A DNA stretch of 64,000 nucleotides from Candidatus Poribacteria bacterium (GTDB lineage Bacteria > Poribacteria > WGA-4E > WGA-3G). Under the pieces are notes generated by a model. It made no database searches. It was not told the origin of the DNA and saw nothing but the letters and a program-made list of their open reading frames with translations. The stretch is taken from the NCBI GenBank assembly GCA_963663765.2, contig CAXXUA010000013.1:160001-224000 (forward strand), in the 5' to 3' direction. Positions 13,390 to 21,846 of the stretch are shown one piece after another (the first letter of the stretch is position 1; each line of letters starts with the position of its first letter). Position numbers and translations under genes: made by a program.

Positions 13390-13716
13390 ATGCCTTTTTT
13401 GGATATAAAAGATCAACCAGAAAAACAGGTATTTGATGGTGTAACTATACAAACTATCCATGGTGAAAAACTTATGATGTCGTATGTGCATTTACAACCC
13501 TATAGCGTTGTTGCGGAGCACAGTCATAGACATGAACAGATGGGAATTGTAATAGAAGGATCGTTTGAATTGACTATTGATGGTGAAACTCAAATATTAC
13601 ATAAAGGGAATACATACCTAATTCCATCTCATGTGAAACACAGTGCGAAAGCTTATGACAAAAAGGCAATTGCCCTTGACATCTTTAGCCCACCACGGGA
13701 AGATTATATATCTTGA
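13390..13716 (+). CDS. Cupin domain protein
   Basis: HSHRHEQ...IPSHVKH...LDIFSPPRED. Confidence 0.9.
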   Translation: MPFLDIKDQPEKQVFDGVTIQTIHGEKLMMSYVHLQPYSVVAEHSHRHEQMGIVIEGSFELTIDGETQILHKGNTYLIPSHVKHSAKAYDKKAIALDIFSPPREDYIS

Positions 13717-14492
13717 GAGACAAGTTGTATTACAATATCTCTGAGTTAACTCAAACTGGATTGGTCAAAGCAGGAATCAGTCTACGTTCAGGAGGAGTAA
13801 GTATTCCCCCCTATGATACGCTTAACTTAGCAACACATGTCGGAGACGATCCAAAAGCTGTATCCCAAAATCAACGTGTTTTCTCAGTTCAAGCAGGCAT
13901 CAAGTCTATAAAATACTGTAAGCAAATACACAGTGATACTGTAATAGATGCTACTACTATTGCACCGTTAGAATGGTACCAAGAAGCGATTAGTAAAATC
14001 CATAAGACGGGAGATGCACTAATTTCATCAACTCAGAATGACACTATTGGTATATTTACCGCTGATTGCATTCCAATTTATATATTGGATAAAAAAACAC
14101 CCGCTATAGGTATTGCACATGCAGGTTGGCGTGGCACATTAGACCTTATCGCAACAAAAACATTAGCACAAATGGAAAGAAAATTTGGTACAATCAAAAA
14201 GAATTGCATTGTCCATTTAGGTGCTTCAATAAAAAAATGTTGTTATCAGGTTAGTTCAGACTTGAAATTCAAGTTTAAAGAACATTTTGGTAATTCTGTA
14301 CATAATGGAGATCGCATAAGTTTGCAAATCGCCAACAGAATTCAATTAGTTGATTTTGGTGTACATCCAAAAGCCATTTCAAATTCTCCCTATTGCACTG
14401 CCTGTAACACAGATAAATTTTTTTCCTATCGTGCTGAATCGGGACAGACAGGTAGAATGCTGTCTTTCATTCAACTCACACGAAATATGTAA
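13713..14492 (+). CDS. pgeF: Peptidoglycan editing factor / purine nucleoside phosphorylase PgeF (YfiH)
   Basis: LNLATHVGD, QIHS, TADCIP, HAGWRG, CT...FFSYR...GRM. Confidence 0.9.
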   Translation: MRDKLYYNISELTQTGLVKAGISLRSGGVSIPPYDTLNLATHVGDDPKAVSQNQRVFSVQAGIKSIKYCKQIHSDTVIDATTIAPLEWYQEAISKIHKTGDALISSTQNDTIGIFTADCIPIYILDKKTPAIGIAHAGWRGTLDLIATKTLAQMERKFGTIKKNCIVHLGASIKKCCYQVSSDLKFKFKEHFGNSVHNGDRISLQIANRIQLVDFGVHPKAISNSPYCTACNTDKFFSYRAESGQTGRMLSFIQLTRNM

Positions 14493-14559
14493 CTCTTCCA
14501 TCTCAGTTATACAAACACTTTTAAGGCATATTCAGCACACTCCTACCTTCTAAACAAAT

Positions 14560-14588
14560 TTGCATTGACGTGAAATAAATGGTATCAT
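14560..14588 (+). promoter_or_regulatory. Promoter upstream of the membrane protein-yggS block
   Basis: TTGCAT-17 nt-TATCAT with extended -10 TG. Confidence 0.5.
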
Positions 14589-14636
14589 TTAAAGTGTAAG
14601 GTAATCACCTTGCATTGTTACACAGCGAGAATAAGC

Positions 14637-14972
14637 ATGCGTTCTCTATGTATAATATTATCAACTTTGACAGTATTGATAGGTCTCATCTTTATAATTT
14701 GGGGATGTATTCATCCAGCGAAATACAATAAGGAATTGTCAAAAGAAACTACTACTGCAGTACGGGTCACACAGGTCTATACTGAGGCAACCTATTATGT
14801 AACTGTCGGAATTGGAATGATCAGTTTAGGCTTACTGGTTTCTCTCATCGGGTTACTGATAACGACAAACAATGAAACCAATCTTTTTTCACGACTTTTC
14901 AGTTTTATAGGCATGTATTCAATAAAAAACGATGATGAGAGTCAACCTGATCAAGAGGAGCAAAATGATTGA
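14637..14972 (+). CDS. Hypothetical two-TM membrane protein
   Basis: Two hydrophobic segments, acidic tail, stop overlaps the yggS start. Confidence 0.7.
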   Translation: MRSLCIILSTLTVLIGLIFIIWGCIHPAKYNKELSKETTTAVRVTQVYTEATYYVTVGIGMISLGLLVSLIGLLITTNNETNLFSRLFSFIGMYSIKNDDESQPDQEEQND

Positions 14973-15667
14973 ATCAAATTGCTGAAAACTTTACCTTAGT
15001 TATGGAGCGAATTGCCTTGGCTGCTAAACGAAGTGGTCGTTCTCCTCATTCAGTAAAGCTTGTCGCAGTTACAAAAGGTGTTTCATTCACAGACATACAG
15101 ACGGCACTTGATTCCGGTGCAAACATTTTAGGTGAAAATCGAGTGCAAGAGGCACAACAAAAATATGAAGAACTTAATTCTTCAGACATACCTCAACTTT
15201 GGGAATGGCATCTAATCGGTCACTTGCAACGGAATAAAGTGAAATCAGCACTACCGATGTTTTCCTTAATCCATTCTGTGGATAGTTTACGACTTCTGAA
15301 GGAAATCTCCCGACGTTCAGAAGAATGGGATAAGGTTACAGATTTATTATTACAAGTAAATACAACCGGAGAAACAAGTAAATTTGGATTAGTACCACAT
15401 GAGATTCTCAACTTCATAGAAACATCACTCCCCTATCCAAATGTAAGGATACAGGGATTAATGACGATGGGAAAATTAAGTGATACACCCCAAGAAAATC
15501 GTCCTGCCTTTGAGTTATTAAGAAACTTTGCAGAAAAGGTAAAAAAACAGAATTATCCAGATGTCACCATGAAGTTCCTTTCTATGGGAATGACAAACGA
15601 TTATGAAGTTGCAATTGAAGAAGGTGCGAATCTCGTTAGAATTGGAAGAGCAATTTTCTGTTCATAA
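14969..15667 (+). CDS. yggS: PLP homeostasis protein YggS
   Basis: LVAVTK, GENRVQE, WHLIGHLQRNK, LSMGMTND, VRIGRAIF. Confidence 0.95.
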   Translation: MNQIAENFTLVMERIALAAKRSGRSPHSVKLVAVTKGVSFTDIQTALDSGANILGENRVQEAQQKYEELNSSDIPQLWEWHLIGHLQRNKVKSALPMFSLIHSVDSLRLLKEISRRSEEWDKVTDLLLQVNTTGETSKFGLVPHEILNFIETSLPYPNVRIQGLMTMGKLSDTPQENRPAFELLRNFAEKVKKQNYPDVTMKFLSMGMTNDYEVAIEEGANLVRIGRAIFCS

Positions 15668-15715
15668 ATACACAATGTCAATTCTTTGTGGCAAGATACT
15701 GTTAGGAGATGTATA

Positions 15716-16531
15716 GTGGTAAAGAATGTAAAATTGGGTGTAATCGGAGTGGGAAAAATGGGTGGGATCATTGTTCGGAGTATAGTTGACCGCCTATTCC
15801 CTGCTGAACAAGTTTGGATAACCGATCTTGATAAAGCCCTTGTTGCAAAGCTCTGTGATGAAAAAAGTGTGAAATCTACTCAAGATATTTCGGAATTAGT
15901 TGAAAAGACTGATGTAATATTTTGTGCTGTACCCCCAATTGCAGTACCACATTTACTACCCCAAGTTGCTCGTAATCTGAAAACACACCAATGGATAATC
16001 AGTATAGCTGCAGGTGTTAGGACTGAATCACTTGAATCCTTTTTTGATACTCCACCACCGATTGTACGTGTGATGCCAAATATTGCTGCTTCAGTACAAG
16101 CAGCAATTTCTGTGTTAACGCCTGGGAGTTTTGCGAATGATGAACATCTCAACATAACACAGCAGATCTTTAATACATGCGGTACTACATTAATTTTAGA
16201 TGAACGACACCTAAATGCTGTGACAGGTGTTAGTGGTAGTGGACCAGCGTATGTTGCACTATTTATAGAAGCATTAGCGGATGCGGGTGTGTTTGTTGGT
16301 CTAACACGAAAGGACGCACAAGTATTGGCAACACATACAGTGTTGGGTGCTGCGACGATGTTAGCACAATCTGAAGAACATCCAGCTGTTCTCAAAAACC
16401 GTGTTACAACCCCAGGAGGAACAACTGCCGCCGGACTCCATGCACTGGAACAAGGAGGTATACGCGCAACACTAACCAAAGCGATAATTGCTGCAACCGA
16501 ACGTGCAAAGCAACTTGACACTAAAGGATAG
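15716..16531 (+). CDS. proC: Pyrroline-5-carboxylate reductase
   Basis: GVGKMG, SIAAG, RVMPN, SGSGPAY, VTTPGGTT; AGGAG RBS before GTG 15716. Confidence 0.95.
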   Translation: MVKNVKLGVIGVGKMGGIIVRSIVDRLFPAEQVWITDLDKALVAKLCDEKSVKSTQDISELVEKTDVIFCAVPPIAVPHLLPQVARNLKTHQWIISIAAGVRTESLESFFDTPPPIVRVMPNIAASVQAAISVLTPGSFANDEHLNITQQIFNTCGTTLILDERHLNAVTGVSGSGPAYVALFIEALADAGVFVGLTRKDAQVLATHTVLGAATMLAQSEEHPAVLKNRVTTPGGTTAAGLHALEQGGIRATLTKAIIAATERAKQLDTKG

Positions 16532-16548
16532 GAAGGGATAAGACCATA

Positions 16549-16815
16549 ATGCAGATTGTTGCAGAATTACTTAGCAAAGCAATTGATATCTACATGTTTA
16601 TTGTTCTCGTCAATGTTCTACTTTCATGGGTTGTGTTTGGTATTCAGAATACATTCGTTCGACAAATCTATACGTTTACGGGTCAAGTTGTAGATCCTGT
16701 ACTGCAACCAATACGTAGCGTCTTAAATCCTGTTAGTCGAAATATTGGGATTGATTTTTCGCCGATTGTATTATTGATTTTGCTTCACACACTAAACAAG
16801 ATGCTAATATCATAA
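16549..16815 (+). CDS. yggT: YggT family membrane protein
   Basis: LLSWV...DPVLQPIR...IDFSPIV. Confidence 0.9.
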   Translation: MQIVAELLSKAIDIYMFIVLVNVLLSWVVFGIQNTFVRQIYTFTGQVVDPVLQPIRSVLNPVSRNIGIDFSPIVLLILLHTLNKMLIS

Positions 16816-16884
16816 AGTATCACCATTGTTATTGTTATTTAATCCTTGAAATAGTTTATATTAGTATAAGACATAATAACAGAA

Positions 16885-19485
16885 ATGACATTTAGTATTA
16901 TGAAACAGACAAATTCTTCAACCAATAAGGCAACTACTAAACTTTCAGAGAAAATACCAAATAACAAAAAGGGAAAAGAAAATCCCTCAAGCAACATAAG
17001 ACCTAATTCAATGGAAGCTGGAATTCTAAAATTGTGGGCATCCAGAAAGGTGTTTAAAATTGCTGAAAAAACGAAGGAATTACCCACTTTTGTTATTAGA
17101 GAGATGCCGATCCCTGTAGATTCGCTAAATGGTAATACTCTTAAGAGTAAAATCTCGCAAGATATCTTTCTAAAGTACGAAATTATTCATGGAAACACAG
17201 TTGCTTATGCCCCAATATGGGAAACATTTCCCTTCAGTATAGAGGTTGATATAATTAAGAAAGATATCCATACATCTTCACGTAACATCGTAAATTTTAG
17301 GAAACAATGTAGACAGTTATACAGTAAACAGTTGAAATCACAAATGAATCGTTTGCAGAAACTTGGAATATTTGCAGATTGGACCACCGCTGAAAAAACA
17401 TTAGAGGCACGCTATGAAACCAAACTCTTTAGTTTTTTTGATAGAATGCGAGACTCAAGATTCCTACGCGATGAACTGAAACTCAGTCATTGGTGTCCAC
17501 AATGTATATCACCTTTAGAAGCTGGTAAAACCGCTAAACCTATAACTACTAATGCACAATTTACTTATGTAAAATTCCCTCTAAATAGCGGATTTGAAGA
17601 ATTCGGTGTAGAAGTCTATTTTGCAATGGGACTGCCATCTTCTCAATTATGGGAAATCGCTGGAACAATTGCAATTGGAATTTATGAAAAAACTCAGTTT
17701 TATCTTATAGAATGGGAAGACCAATATCTTATAATAGCTGAACCACAACTAAAGAATTTTTTTAATCAAGATGTAAAAAAGAAGAAAAAGACAAAAACCA
17801 ACAAAAAACAGCTATTAAAATTTAATGCTTGTCTTTTAAAAGACTGCACGCTTTCACATCCATTATATTCACTACCAGATCTGCACTTTTTTGTTATACC
17901 TGAGGAAATAATTGACAGCATTTCCAACTCCTCTGAAAAACAGGAATTAATGAATGGAATTGTTCATTTGAACCCTGCACATCATGTATTGAGTTATAAC
18001 ATCTGTAATAAATTGTCTGAAATCAGAGAATCCATTCATACAAGATTTGAGTCTTCATCTTCTTTCACACCAATATTTGATGAAGTTGGACGTTTTACTG
18101 AGGAAGCAGACACATTGTGTGGAATAAATTTAAACAATGCAATGCAGTATATCACGGATGAATTGGAAGCACGCGATTGTCTTATTAGAACGAATAAACA
18201 AGAGATTGAACAACTTCAGTGTGAACACTGTGATGGTTTATCTGTCTCTCGACCTTACCGTCACTGGGTTTTTTCAGCCACTTCTACTGATATTGTTGAA
18301 GAGGTTACAACGTCACCAGAATATTGGGAACACTACAACGACAACTTACGCGATGAAATTAAGACACAAGTCCTCAATATCTCTGATATGCAGATTTCTT
18401 CTCAGCGACAGTGGGGTATCCCTTTCCCAATTCTTCGATGTGACAATTGCAACCATCTCATTACAGACAAAAAGATTCTACGAGCTGTGAGAAGTTCCAT
18501 CCGAAGAGGTTCTGAACACTGGTTTAGACTCAGTGTAGAAGAACTACTTCCAACAGATACTCAGTGTGAAAACTGTCACTCAAAAGATTTTAGAAAAGAA
18601 TCAACTTATATTGAGAGTCATTTCGCTAACTTACTACAAACGCTTGACATCTCAGACTTTAAAAAGTCTTCAATAGATACGACAACTAATGTTGTCTTTG
18701 CACCACGATCAGCTTTCTTGAAATGGTTAGGGGAATTAAGTGTATTATCCGCATCATTACAACTCAGTCGTCCATCTAAAGAAAGTCATCCTTTTAAGCA
18801 TCTGAATCTTAATAGTTTTGACGATTGCAACTGGGATCCAGAAATTGAGGATAAATACTTAGAGGAATATCCAGCAGATGTAATCAGACTATTCTCCGTT
18901 TCAACAGATTTATGTCAAGTACCTTCTGAAGTTGACAAAACACAAACACTTCAAGAGATAATTGATCATACTAATAAAAAATATAATAAACTAAGAATTG
19001 TTTTAGATCAGGTTGTTGCATACAAGAACAATCAAAATAAAAAACCTGATTCCAATAACGATTTATTTTTATCAGATCTGTCAAATGAAAATGCTGCAGA
19101 CACCTTAAGTGAGCATGACATTCTTATAATCACAATGACCAATCAACTGCTTCGTGACATACAGGACGTTTACAAAAAAAGAGATTTCTTTATGATGTGG
19201 CGGATGATTTCAGACTTTTGTGAAATAGATCTATTGGTGTATATTGACTTATGCCAAGAAAATGATTCAGATTCTGCGAATATTGTACTTCCAGTGATAT
19301 TCAAAGTCATTCTTCAATACTTAGCGCCAATTTTGCCTTTTTTAGCTGAACAGACATACACAAAGGGTTATTCTGCATCAAACAGTATTTTTGAAGAAAA
19401 ACTGGAGTGTCTACCACAAATCTTTGCTGATGAAAAGTCAATAGAAGTGTGGGATCTGTTTAGGAACAAGAAAAGTTCAAAGTAA
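16885..19485 (+). CDS. Degenerate isoleucyl-tRNA synthetase-like protein lacking catalytic motifs
   Basis: IleRS landmarks kept in order (KLGIFADW, WCPQC, YVKFPL, VHLNPAH, ISSQRQWGIPFP, YPADVIRL, LAPILPFLAE); no HIGH or KMSKS; lies between yggT and lspA. Confidence 0.85.
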   Translation: MTFSIMKQTNSSTNKATTKLSEKIPNNKKGKENPSSNIRPNSMEAGILKLWASRKVFKIAEKTKELPTFVIREMPIPVDSLNGNTLKSKISQDIFLKYEIIHGNTVAYAPIWETFPFSIEVDIIKKDIHTSSRNIVNFRKQCRQLYSKQLKSQMNRLQKLGIFADWTTAEKTLEARYETKLFSFFDRMRDSRFLRDELKLSHWCPQCISPLEAGKTAKPITTNAQFTYVKFPLNSGFEEFGVEVYFAMGLPSSQLWEIAGTIAIGIYEKTQFYLIEWEDQYLIIAEPQLKNFFNQDVKKKKKTKTNKKQLLKFNACLLKDCTLSHPLYSLPDLHFFVIPEEIIDSISNSSEKQELMNGIVHLNPAHHVLSYNICNKLSEIRESIHTRFESSSSFTPIFDEVGRFTEEADTLCGINLNNAMQYITDELEARDCLIRTNKQEIEQLQCEHCDGLSVSRPYRHWVFSATSTDIVEEVTTSPEYWEHYNDNLRDEIKTQVLNISDMQISSQRQWGIPFPILRCDNCNHLITDKKILRAVRSSIRRGSEHWFRLSVEELLPTDTQCENCHSKDFRKESTYIESHFANLLQTLDISDFKKSSIDTTTNVVFAPRSAFLKWLGELSVLSASLQLSRPSKESHPFKHLNLNSFDDCNWDPEIEDKYLEEYPADVIRLFSVSTDLCQVPSEVDKTQTLQEIIDHTNKKYNKLRIVLDQVVAYKNNQNKKPDSNNDLFLSDLSNENAADTLSEHDILIITMTNQLLRDIQDVYKKRDFFMMWRMISDFCEIDLLVYIDLCQENDSDSANIVLPVIFKVILQYLAPILPFLAEQTYTKGYSASNSIFEEKLECLPQIFADEKSIEVWDLFRNKKSSK

Positions 19486-19510
19486 CAACTTAAACGGTAT
19501 TAATAAGTAA

Positions 19511-20005
19511 GTGACAAACCTAACACAGTACTTTAAAAAGGCTATACCGCTGTTCGTTGTAGCAGTACCAATGTTGACGCTGGATATCCTAACTAAATGG
19601 ATTGTACGCGAGAACATACAATTGGATGACAGCATATCAGTCATCAACGGTTTTTTTTATCTCAGTCATCATAGAAACTCTGGTGCAGCATTTGGTATTC
19701 TGGCAAATCAACGGACTTTGCTTGTATTAGTAACTATCGCTGCACTTATCTTTATTTTTTTGTATTCAAATCGTTATAGAAACAGTAAATGGGTACAGAC
19801 GGCACTCGGTTTTGTTCTTGGAGGTGCAGTAGGTAACTTTCTTGACAGACTATTTTTGGGAGAAGTTGTTGACTTTCTTCAGTTTGGCATTGAAAGTAAG
19901 AATCTGTTTTGGCCCACTTTTAATGTAGCCGATGTCAGTGTTTGCATAGGGGCAGGCATGCTTATCGTTTACCTTTTCCGTCAGCAAAATCAGGGAACAA
20001 ATTGA
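19511..20005 (+). CDS. lspA: Lipoprotein signal peptidase II
   Basis: NSGAAFG, GAVGNFLDR, VVDF, FNVAD. Confidence 0.97.
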   Translation: MTNLTQYFKKAIPLFVVAVPMLTLDILTKWIVRENIQLDDSISVINGFFYLSHHRNSGAAFGILANQRTLLVLVTIAALIFIFLYSNRYRNSKWVQTALGFVLGGAVGNFLDRLFLGEVVDFLQFGIESKNLFWPTFNVADVSVCIGAGMLIVYLFRQQNQGTN

Positions 20006-20091
20006 TACAACACTACACACAGCTATTGTAATTCATAAAAGTTTCTAAACTAAATTCAAATATCAAGAAAACTATGGTCAAGGTAGAATAG

Positions 20092-20649
20092 ATGTTATTA
20101 CTTAGAAATTACCTTTGTATTCTGGCAGTTTTTGCTACGATTATAATCACACCTACGATACATGCGCAAGTCAGTCAAGACGATGCGGAAGAATATCATG
20201 AAAGTGCATTGCGACGGTTTGAAATTGTTACATTAAGTTCACTTCCATTTACTGCAATACATAGTTATTTAGGTGTTCGTGGTGTGAGAATGATTCAAGA
20301 CAGCAAAATAGCACCGGTTTTGACCCCGCAAAATTATCGTGTAATGGGTATTTGTGCCGTATCGTTGTCACTATTTATCGGAATTTGGGACTGGTACCAT
20401 ACGCGTGATGTTGACAGGTCAGCACCAAGTATACCGGGGTACAAACCCCCAACACCTCCTTCAGAGGAAGAGTTACCACCGGATGGGACAATCACACAGG
20501 TTACTCCTTATGGACCACATGCAAATGTCCATACCACATCAATGGAATATAGATATTACCCATATTCTACAGAAAACTCACAACTAAATGGGTGGGTAGC
20601 CGAACAAAGTGAAAGTGTTTACATCCCTATTTTACAGATAAGGTTTTGA
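20092..20649 (+). CDS. Hypothetical secreted/membrane protein
   Basis: Signal peptide (IHA|Q), internal TM, Pro-rich linker. Confidence 0.7.
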   Translation: MLLLRNYLCILAVFATIIITPTIHAQVSQDDAEEYHESALRRFEIVTLSSLPFTAIHSYLGVRGVRMIQDSKIAPVLTPQNYRVMGICAVSLSLFIGIWDWYHTRDVDRSAPSIPGYKPPTPPSEEELPPDGTITQVTPYGPHANVHTTSMEYRYYPYSTENSQLNGWVAEQSESVYIPILQIRF

Positions 20650-20660
20650 CCTAATGAACT

Positions 20661-20689
20661 TTGACATTCAAACGGGGTAATGTTATAAT
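20661..20689 (+). promoter_or_regulatory. Consensus promoter inside the IS630 left end
   Basis: TTGACA-17 nt-TATAAT with extended TG. Confidence 0.8.
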
Positions 20690-20718
20690 GATATAATTCT
20701 AAATATAAGGAGTATATC

Positions 20719-21846
20719 ATGGCAAAACGCAGAGAACTTATTCTTTCAGAAGAAGAAAGACAGAAATTGATTAAATACAGAGATCATCACCCCCGGCCTG
20801 ATGTCAGAGAAAAAGCTGCAGCGTTGTTGAAAGTAAACGATGGTATTCCTGCACACCGGGTTTCAAAAAGTGGGTTACTCAAACGCCGCAAGCCTGATAC
20901 TGTCTACAGATGGTTGAATATTTATGAAGAAGAAGGTTTTGATGAACTCATACAGCGACAACATGGTGGAGCAAGACAACGATTTTCAAAAAAAAAAGAA
21001 GAAGAACTATTAGAACGTGTGCGCCAAGTCCCTGCTGAAGTTATGGATAATGCGAAAGTTGTTTCTACTGATGTGCCTCCCCCAAATCGTTGGACGCTTC
21101 GGACACTACGTGCGAGTCTTGATTGGTTAGAAGGATACAGCCTGAGCGGTGTTCATAGAGTGCTGTCTCGTTGTGGTTTGCGTCTTCGCTCAGGTCGCGT
21201 GCAGCAGTATAGTCCGGATCCTGAGTATAAGGAGAAAGTGTTGCATTTGTGTTCCTGCTTACAGCAGACCATTGGCAATCGTGGTCAACAAGAGTTGGTA
21301 TTTCTGGATGAGATGGGATATACTCGTTGGCCTGAAGCGGGGCGTGTTTGGACACAAGCACCGCCGGAAAGTATTCCTGTGGCAAGTTGTGATGGAAATA
21401 ACCAGCAATGGCGAATTATTGGTGCACTGAATGCGTTGACAGGGCAGGTCTGTTATCTTGATAACTACATTGTAGGACGTGCGAAAGTGATTGAAATGTA
21501 TCAGAAGTTGACACAAGTATATCCACAAGCAGAAATACTTTATGTTGTTCAAGATAACTGGTCTATTCATAAACATCCAGATGTGCTTGATGCGTTATCA
21601 GAGTTACCACAGATCAAGCCTGTTTGGCTACCGACCTATGCACCGTGGTTGAACCCGATTGAGAAGTTGTGGAGATGGCTGCGTGTAGACGTGTTTAAGA
21701 TGCATCGCTTTGCGAGCCAGTGGGAGGAGTTCAGGGCCCGGGTGAACGGATTTCTCGATCAATTTGCAGACGGTTCGGAGGACTTACTCCGTTATATAGG
21801 ACTGAAAGGCAATGGTCTAATAGCAAACGCTTGTAGACCTGTTTAA
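20719..21846 (+). CDS. IS630 transposase, single ORF
   Basis: HTH; FLDEMG, VVQDNWSIH, LPTYAPWLNPIEKLW. Confidence 0.95.
   Translation: MAKRRELILSEEERQKLIKYRDHHPRPDVREKAAALLKVNDGIPAHRVSKSGLLKRRKPDTVYRWLNIYEEEGFDELIQRQHGGARQRFSKKKEEELLERVRQVPAEVMDNAKVVSTDVPPPNRWTLRTLRASLDWLEGYSLSGVHRVLSRCGLRLRSGRVQQYSPDPEYKEKVLHLCSCLQQTIGNRGQQELVFLDEMGYTRWPEAGRVWTQAPPESIPVASCDGNNQQWRIIGALNALTGQVCYLDNYIVGRAKVIEMYQKLTQVYPQAEILYVVQDNWSIHKHPDVLDALSELPQIKPVWLPTYAPWLNPIEKLWRWLRVDVFKMHRFASQWEEFRARVNGFLDQFADGSEDLLRYIGLKGNGLIANACRPV

Follow-up and report, generated by a model that had tools for sequence, protein, structure and literature searches.

Why would a bacterium keep, in its usual operon, a full-length isoleucyl-tRNA synthetase (IleRS) gene from which the catalytic signatures have gone? 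The question is raised by a stretch of 64,000 nucleotides from Candidatus Poribacteria (contig CAXXUA010000013.1, positions 160,001 to 224,000; hereafter the window, whose own numbering is used for the locus), in which a long open reading frame (ORF) lies between yggT and lspA. An earlier note on this DNA had described the ORF as an uninterrupted but catalytically gutted IleRS at the ancestral ileS-lspA locus, and had proposed that it is under selection for a new role while a working ileS, perhaps IleRS2, lies elsewhere in the genome. We refer to the encoded protein as psi-IleRS. The results described below led us to consider it likely that psi-IleRS is inactive in aminoacylation and has been retained by selection for a different role.

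Loss of the IleRS signatures from an intact frame

The ORF call, the Pfam matches and the alignment to profiles of solved structures agreed on an uninterrupted frame of 866 codons that is colinear with IleRS. The protein matched the Pfam families tRNA-synt_1 (4e-25) and Anticodon_1 (1.4e-8), and its closest solved structures were those of IleRS1 (8c9e, 9e-33; 1ffy, 8e-28), followed by that of IleRS2 (8c9d, 1e-19). With the NCBIfam ileS model TIGR00392 it scored 190.5 bits, below the cut-off of 621.4 bits, and the six-frame search of the genome gave 159 plus 36 bits at this locus. At the 34.6% GC of the gene, the probability that 866 codons stay free of stops by chance is 1.4e-29; the longest open run among 2000 shuffles was 136 codons, and the remaining five frames carry 34 to 93 stops.

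psi-IleRS was aligned with E. coli IleS, with its relatives and with the other IleRS of the same genome. Every motif replacement that the earlier note had listed was reproduced against the E. coli enzyme, as were the losses of KMSKS and of the C-terminal zinc finger. The PPYANG..HIGH segment reads REMPIPVDSLNGNT (residues 72-85), with L-N-G-N aligned to the HIGH residues, and GWDCHGLPIE reads IWETFPFSIE (111-120). WTTTPWT is replaced by GLPSSQLWEI (249-258), in which the threonines of TTTPWT are gone (SSQLWEI), and GTGxVHxAPxHGxDD is replaced by MNGIVHLNPAHHVLS (356-370; NPAHHVLS), in which the position of E. coli Asp342 is occupied by Ser370, invariant in the family. Likewise, DWCISRQR has become DMQISSQR (501-508), and DVWFDSG has become ESHFANL (577-583). 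KMSKS is absent, the aligned stretch NSFDDCNW having no lysines; the chain stops short of the C-terminal CxxC zinc domain (zf-FPG_IleRS type), and the EGxDQxRGWF-type positions and the anticodon-domain positions of IleRS1 are lost as well. Kept, as had been noticed before, are four CxxC pairs (CPQC 204-207, CEHC 446-449, CDNC 519-522 and CENC 561-564), which, to judge from solved IleRS structures, presumably make up two zinc knuckles, and the Lys-rich N-terminus and the segment VKKKKKTKTNKK (297-308) are likewise present.

HIGH (HxGH), KMSKS and TTTPWT patterns were found in none of 118 family proteins. For a comparison by column, 83 canonical IleRS1 representatives gave 185 columns conserved at 80% or more. 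A phylum-wide clade of 24 psi-IleRS sequences kept 38 of these, mostly Trp, Pro and Gly, and lost 107, including E. coli H65, G67, D96, T241-243, H333, D342, W534, K602, K605 and R656-R660 as well as the cysteines C901, C904, C921 and C924; none of the 185 switched to a different fixed residue in that clade. When six distant copies were aligned, all six lacked HIGH, KMSKS and TTTPWT, PGHxxDDY was still visible in the copies of families f8 and f3, and the first C-terminal CxxC was retained, among the copies aligned, solely in the basal relative G041. Judged by these replacements, psi-IleRS would be unable to adenylate, to charge or to edit.

The fold has fared differently from the motifs. The profile alignment and the ESM Atlas model of the orthologue P0021 (58% identical; predicted TM score 0.74) indicate that the multi-domain architecture, with its Rossmann core, CP1 and helical anticodon-binding domain, is kept and is colinear with IleRS1. 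Over residues 31-849 this model matched IleRS clusters with a TM score of 0.77, and several of the clusters matched carry the IleRS1-type zinc finger.

Ancestry of the gene and the working IleRS2

A profile built from 69 family sequences matched, with its positions 37-855, residues 22-804 of P. megaterium IleRS1, which has 921 residues (8c9e, 2e-56); against IleRS2 (8c9d) the same profile reached 1e-32 and aligned only over positions 33-522. In a maximum-likelihood (ML) tree of 25 rows, the gutted copies formed one clade (SH-aLRT 99) that is sister to E. coli IleRS1 (99) and separate from the IleRS2 clade (100). The gutted copies branch in agreement with genome taxonomy, and their branches are roughly five times the length of those of IleRS2. 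An ML tree of 25 IleRS1, 13 IleRS2 and 12 gutted sequences placed psi-IleRS and IleRS1 on one side of a branch with an SH-aLRT of 99.9, and FastTree placed psi-IleRS within a 129-row IleRS1 clade (support 100). In the approximately unbiased (AU) test, a grouping of psi-IleRS with IleRS2 was worse by 45 log-likelihood units and was not rejected at 0.05 (p-AU 0.080), which tells against certainty of an IleRS1 ancestry.

The idea of an ancestral ileS-lspA locus found support in gene order, since lspA lies downstream of canonical ileS in E. coli and of IleRS1 in 31 of 58 canonical loci of other phyla with both flanks (drawn from 80 canonical IleRS1 loci, mostly Bacillota), where yggT and proC were each found upstream in 13. 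Around psi-IleRS, the 1.5-kb flanks of 20 loci of the genus contained yggT in 20, proC in 19 and lspA in 18, and six distant relatives had lspA downstream in 6/6 and proC upstream in 5/6. The best explanation of the alignments, trees and gene order is that psi-IleRS would be the original IleRS1 gene of the phylum, still in its proC-yggT-ileS-lspA slot. It resembles canonical IleRS1 (E. coli IleS, 8c9e, S. aureus 1ffy) in colinearity, in the fold of the orthologue model, in the position upstream of lspA and, in the best trees, in grouping, and differs from it in having lost the catalytic, editing, anticodon and zinc-domain signatures.

A working ileS does lie elsewhere, and the guess that it might be an IleRS2 proved right. 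The genome of the window (6.35 Mb in 15 contigs, 97.8% complete) has exactly one match above the ileS cut-off, on a different contig at G000:C3:26362-28872 (973 bits versus 621, in a 1066-aa frame), so psi-IleRS is not the sole ileS. Besides KMSKS and TTTPWT, this IleRS2 (locus L001) has the editing Asp motif and WFDSG, with GVHH where HxGH is expected. A canonical IleRS2-length gene (920-996 bits) was present in nine of ten other Poribacteria genomes, the tenth being cut by a contig end. KMSKS or KMSKT, and TTTPWT, occur in all nine Poribacteria IleRS2 compared, and GVHH in eight (the comparison comprised L001, L031-L034 and L043-L046), G041 having TIAH instead. According to Brkic et al. (2023, PMC10485003), IleRS2 with GXHH occurs in nature, is active and shows hyper-resistance to mupirocin; the same authors report that IleRS1 loses activity upon the HXGH-to-GXHH swap. 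Because GVHH is this mupirocin-hyper-resistant variant, its occurrence in Poribacteria IleRS2 suggests past exposure to IleRS inhibitors.

According to Zanki et al. (10.1101/2022.02.09.479832), bacteria generally rely on ileS1 or ileS2, and both are found only in Bacillaceae, plasmid-bearing S. aureus aside. The Bacillaceae pairs are like those of Poribacteria in that both gene types share one genome, and the GXHH variant of IleRS2 has been described (PMC10485003). However, both Bacillaceae enzymes are described as active, IleRS1 being the constitutive one (10.1101/2022.02.09.479832), whereas in Poribacteria IleRS2 is the sole canonical enzyme and IleRS1 appears gutted.

Selection on psi-IleRS and the role it may serve

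Orthologues occurred in 24/24 other genomes of the genus searched (47-80% identity), and they proved unbroken, with open frames of 854-886 aa in 20/20 genus loci. Across the phylum, 176 genomes were searched at E ≤ 1e-20, a threshold chosen because IleRS2 and ValRS cross-hits were 1e-16 or weaker, and 155 of them contained a psi-IleRS match. It was found in 111/111 genomes of f1, the family of the window's own genome, in 25/29 of f3 (genus g3, 0/4), 6/7 of f4, 3/3 of f5, 7/8 of f8, 1/1 of f9 and 1/2 of f10, and in 0/11 of f2 and 0/1 each of f6, f7 and f11. The scores of the second copies with the ileS model, all below its cut-off, formed a gradient that ran from 445 bits in G041 through 304 (G052), 276 (G032), 260 (G057), 259 (G056), 234 (G027) and 226 (G053) to 128 bits in G033.

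The ratio of nonsynonymous to synonymous substitution rates (dN/dS, or omega) was obtained by the Nei-Gojobori method on codon alignments, with pooling over five phylogenetically separate pairs. The pooled omega of psi-IleRS was 0.224 (Fisher p=2e-102), far below 1, in agreement with the selection that the earlier note had supposed. For the six closest pairs it ranged from 0.16 to 0.45, and the ranges for lspA, yggT and proC were 0.08-0.20, 0.06-0.48 and 0.09-0.36, respectively. By region, omega was 0.14 and 0.135 in the N- and C-halves of the Rossmann fold, 0.19 in CP1, 0.32 in the helical domain, 0.38 in the KMSKS-loop region and 0.77 (not significant) in the N-terminal tail. Among 114 full-length family proteins, conservation reaches 95% or more at 172 of the 866 positions and 80% or more at a further 107. 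The eight cysteines of the CxxC pairs (C204, C207, C446, C449, C519, C522, C561 and C564) do not vary among 69 sequences, and neither do R72, E73, P75, W112 and E113 at the former HIGH and GWDCHGLP sites. A strain variant on contigs of a different study carried 14 substitutions, 9 synonymous and 5 nonsynonymous, with no stop and no indel (pN/pS 0.145, binomial p=5e-4), and four of the five nonsynonymous changes fall past residue 685; two further runs with a sequence identical to psi-IleRS may be the window's own source. Purifying selection maintains psi-IleRS across most of the phylum, and the marks of a pseudogene were not seen, the frame being undisrupted, omega low and survival among close relatives complete rather than patchy.

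Within a genome pair, the synonymous distances also differed strongly between loci. In the pair G020/G003 (L013/L014 versus L141/L142), dS was 0.044 at psi-IleRS, 0.067 at lspA and 0.053 at proC, but 0.223 at IleRS2, and in the pair G002/G012 it was 0.172 at the psi-IleRS locus versus 0.544 at IleRS2. Recombination or exchange of one locus is possible.

We propose that the ancestor of Poribacteria would have had IleRS1 in the usual operon and that a eukaryote-like, resistance-type IleRS2 would have taken over the charging of tRNA-Ile. The IleRS1 gene would have lost catalysis before the sampled classes diverged, and the displaced protein would have been retained as a folded, zinc-binding protein. 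RNA binding may be assisted, in the window's family, by two basic additions, a disordered tail at the N-terminus and a loop in CP1. With the signatures for ATP, the amino acid, editing and the anticodon all lost, the economical assumption is a binding role, and we infer that psi-IleRS is retained for binding rather than for aminoacylation catalysis.

As to what is bound, we tentatively put forward RNA, with the IleRS scaffold acting as an RNA- or tRNA-binding platform of low sequence specificity, a proposal that we hold with more doubt than confidence. Measured over 114 family proteins, the N-terminal tail is 36 aa long at the median and carries a median net charge of +7 (+5 or higher in 82% of them); for the loop at residues 290-312, which holds the Lys-rich segment of the window's protein, the median net charge is +5. 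Tail and loop alike conserve a basic composition while their sequence drifts, and the Atlas model of P0021 aligns to IleRS1 only from residue 31. These basic appendages suggest RNA in the window's own family. The suggestion is weakened by the copies of f3, f4 and f8, which lack the basic tail and have isoelectric points of 4.6-5.6, by the drift of the tail sequence with its high omega, and by the loss of the conserved anticodon-domain residues and of the zinc-binding C-terminal domain.

A second possible role, nearly as likely as RNA binding, is to serve another protein as its non-catalytic partner or regulatory subunit, by analogy with HisZ. HisZ, the archetype of an inactive synthetase paralogue kept for binding or regulation, is the regulatory subunit of ATP phosphoribosyltransferase and has HisG as its partner. 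It differs from psi-IleRS in being a class II protein whose partner is known and whose gene context shows the pathway, whereas neither a partner nor a pathway link is visible for psi-IleRS. HisZ is listed as a HisRS paralogue in a table of the review PMC9437257, in which the nearest precedents of psi-IleRS are LeuRS-I, LeuRS2 and SbzA.

The last of these raises the question of a new enzyme on the IleRS scaffold, for example a transferase that uses aminoacyl-tRNA, as SbzA does, or an activity that depends on zinc, Cys or His, a reading that we regard as unlikely. SbzA, as described in PMC12945691, is an IleRS homologue reused outside translation with a canonical domain architecture, and shows that such reuse can occur. 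In the psi-IleRS family, C142, C412, C779, H325, H366, D399, E400, R570-K571-E572 and R629 are invariant, and re-fixed residues sit in the old active-site motifs, as a new activity would have it. However, SbzA keeps 61-HYGH-64, the signature-motif residue Lys608, weak aminoacylation and a place in a biosynthetic cluster (PMC12945691), and psi-IleRS has none of these. Moreover, the re-fixed residues are family-specific and not common to the phylum-wide clade, and the neighbourhood is one of housekeeping genes (pgeF, yggS, proC, yggT, lspA and fmt) with no biosynthetic genes.

Several results weigh against a selected function and would fit a slowly decaying, functionless relic, which survives by its operon position upstream of lspA or because truncated products are harmful. 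Selection on psi-IleRS is about threefold relaxed compared with IleRS2, whose omega over the same five genome pairs was 0.076, and its branches are the long ones described above. In f2, proC, yggT and lspA are directly adjacent and the gene is cleanly deleted (3/3 loci), and in g3 an unrelated small ORF replaces it between yggT and lspA (2/2 loci), lspA being intact in both. Only 6 columns are newly constrained across the phylum relative to canonical IleRS1, so that no common new motif identifies the function of psi-IleRS. Finally, no RNA run is listed as carrying the gene. We nevertheless consider a relic improbable. The low omega reaches its minimum in the former catalytic core, 172 positions are at least 95% conserved, all eight CxxC cysteines are invariant, frames are intact throughout the genus, matches extend over several families and classes, and even the strain-level variant leans synonymous. 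Furthermore, the deletion in f2 was easy and was tolerated by lspA, which argues that operon position alone is insufficient for retention. The clean loss in two lineages indicates that psi-IleRS is useful rather than essential and is dispensable in some lineages.

It is highly improbable that psi-IleRS, as a counterpart to LeuRS-I of Sulfolobaceae, still activates isoleucine or charges tRNA by way of a non-canonical active site. In favour of such an activity are the retained fold, a purifying selection that peaks in the two Rossmann halves, the persistence of residues equivalent to E. coli P57, W95 and F535, and the conservative replacement of D96 by E113 within the family. Against it, neither class I signature motif occurs in any of the 118 proteins, the 107 lost columns of 185 include H65, G67, K602 and K605, IleRS1 is reported to lose activity upon no more than the HXGH-to-GXHH swap (PMC10485003), psi-IleRS scores 190 bits against the cut-off of 621, and the genome has a complete IleRS2. 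LeuRS-I and the LeuRS2 of Halobacteria (PMC4005665) are like psi-IleRS in being a second full-length class Ia paralogue that charges poorly and is kept by selection. According to PMC9437257, adenylate formation and tRNA-Leu binding persist in LeuRS-I, and some aminoacylation, at a reduced level, persists in LeuRS2, whereas psi-IleRS is without both ATP-site motifs. In addition, psi-IleRS would be an ancestral gene displaced in situ by an IleRS2-type gene and not a diverged duplicate.

The locus and the wider pattern

The features of the locus are given in Table 1. By Pfam, the genes upstream of psi-IleRS are a pgeF-type Cu-oxidase_4 gene, a 120-aa ORF without a family, a yggS-type Ala_racemase_N gene, proC and yggT; downstream are lspA, a 185-aa ORF, a DDE_3 transposase and fmt. 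In-frame ATGs occur at 16885 and 16900. Because Met6 is almost invariant and orthologues start MKK.NS, translation may in fact begin at the second of them, 16900 (Met6); neither ATG is preceded by an obvious Shine-Dalgarno sequence. A promoter and terminator scan of 13400-20800 was uninformative (21 promoter-like sites versus 25.9 expected and 6 terminator-like sites versus 4.0), and Rfam gave nothing at gathering scores on the window and the IleRS2 locus, with no T-box or other leader.

The 185-aa ORF adjoins lspA in relatives too (172-176 aa; L056-L060) and has a hydrophobic N-terminus and a C-terminal end in ...RF or ...AF. The transposase that lies between it and fmt has, at its position in f2 and g3 relatives, a peptide-deformylase-like ORF, and the sole Pep_deformylase match of the window's genome is on another contig (G000:C5:111920-112375). 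The ORF that stands in place of psi-IleRS in g3 encodes 111-122 aa of a family without assignment (L059 2049-2414 in G026; L060 2069-2401 in G029).

Table 1. Features of psi-IleRS and its neighbours in the window
Feature	Coordinates	Strand	Description or basis
psi-IleRS	16885..19485	+	ATG 16885, TAA 19483-19485; 866 codons/866 aa; without catalytic motifs; probably IleRS1-derived
N-terminal basic low-complexity tail, aa 1-43	16885..17013	+	Composition across 114 family proteins
Rossmann fold, first half	17014..17481	+	Motif alignment
Former PPYANG..HIGH	17098-17139	+	REMPIPVDSLNGNT
Former GWDCHGLPIE	17215-17244	+	IWETFPFSIE
CP1/editing-like insertion, bounded by CPQC and CEHC	17482..18249	+	Motif alignment
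CPQC	17494-17505	+	In CP1
Former TTTPWT	17629-17658	+	In CP1
Lys-rich loop	17773-17808	+	In CP1; VKKKKKTKTNKK
Former editing Asp motif	17950-17994	+	In CP1
CEHC	18220-18231	+	In CP1
Rossmann fold, second half, with CP2/3	18250..18804	+	Most conserved region of the family
DMQISSQR	18385-18408		In Rossmann second half
CDNC	18439-18450		In Rossmann second half
CENC	18565-18576		In Rossmann second half
ESHFANL	18613-18633		In Rossmann second half; former DVWFDSG
Family-specific block	18766-18804	+	In Rossmann second half; SRPSKESHPFKHL
Former KMSKS-loop region	18805..19104	+	NSFDDCNW (18811-18834) aligned; no KMSKS
Helical anticodon-binding-type domain	19105..19482	+	Pfam Anticodon_1 at aa 748-841
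lspA (signal peptidase II)	19511..20005	+	Pfam Peptidase_A8 5e-41; downstream neighbour; starts 25 nt past psi-IleRS
proC	15686-16531	+	Pfam P5CR_dimer 6e-40; upstream
yggT	16549-16815	+	Pfam YGGT 1e-18; upstream
185-aa ORF	20092-20649		No Pfam family
DDE_3 transposase	20719-21846		IS630-like

When 1.84 billion representatives were searched exhaustively with a profile, 333 matches at E ≤ 1e-30 were returned. Among the matches listed, the 130 of at least 700 aa were aligned with the query and E. coli IleS added, giving 132 rows, of which a motif rule called 91 canonical, 33 without both signature motifs and 8 without one. A FastTree of 140 rows contained a Poribacteria clade of 25 rows, all of them degenerate. 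A separate clade of 14 rows contained 10 degenerate, 3 partial and 1 canonical sequences, and three further degenerate proteins were scattered. The starred branches of this tree force at least six label changes, a count that is to be read with its long branches, a query profile that favours degenerate sequences and crude motif rules in mind.

Names found outside the Poribacteria clade were Armatimonadota (2), Candidatus Wallbacteria (1) and Bacillota (1), some of the proteins being annotated as isoleucine--tRNA ligase; those inside were Candidatus Poribacteria (2), a JGI 'isoleucyl-tRNA synthetase' (1) and Deltaproteobacteria (1, a fragment). The IleRS1-length proteins outside the clade that lack one or both motifs are P0140, P0142, P0160, P0164, P0166, P0169, P0170, P0174, P0175, P0188, P0197, P0212, P0219, P0236 and P0239. 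The IleRS1-like degenerate proteins outside Poribacteria may represent independent decay with retention.

Our literature search found no paper describing the psi-IleRS family, although supplements, which were outside its reach, may hold relevant trees. The portion of a 2026 preprint on C-terminal remodelling of IleRS that was accessible contains no mention of Poribacteria, pseudogene, inactive or paralog. In sequence sources, family members carry the names 'class I tRNA ligase family protein', 'hypothetical protein' and, at JGI, 'isoleucyl-tRNA synthetase', and the labels of the last kind call for correction.

Taken together, the results outline a broader proposal, which in our judgement is as apt to be wrong as right, that Poribacteria hold an undescribed family of full-length, IleRS1-derived pseudo-synthetases, turned in situ into a non-catalytic binder of RNA/tRNA or protein and kept since before the classes diverged, and that the same fate may recur in other phyla. 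Synthetase paralogues that have left translation (HisZ, PoxA, LeuRS-I and SbzA) are a main source of ideas on how essential enzymes gain new functions. psi-IleRS would be an unusually clean case, since the displaced enzyme still lies in its ancestral operon, the replacement can be identified, the signatures of catalysis, editing and anticodon reading have all gone, and yet a fold of about 860 residues, with two presumed zinc knuckles, is under purifying selection in most of a phylum. It would add a case to the published view that IleRS1 and IleRS2 coexist only in Bacillaceae, and it would be a natural experiment in the use of the IleRS scaffold without catalysis. If the proposal is true, the displacement of one synthetase by another, with the loser then exapted, would be a general way in which new proteins resembling aminoacyl-tRNA synthetases arise.

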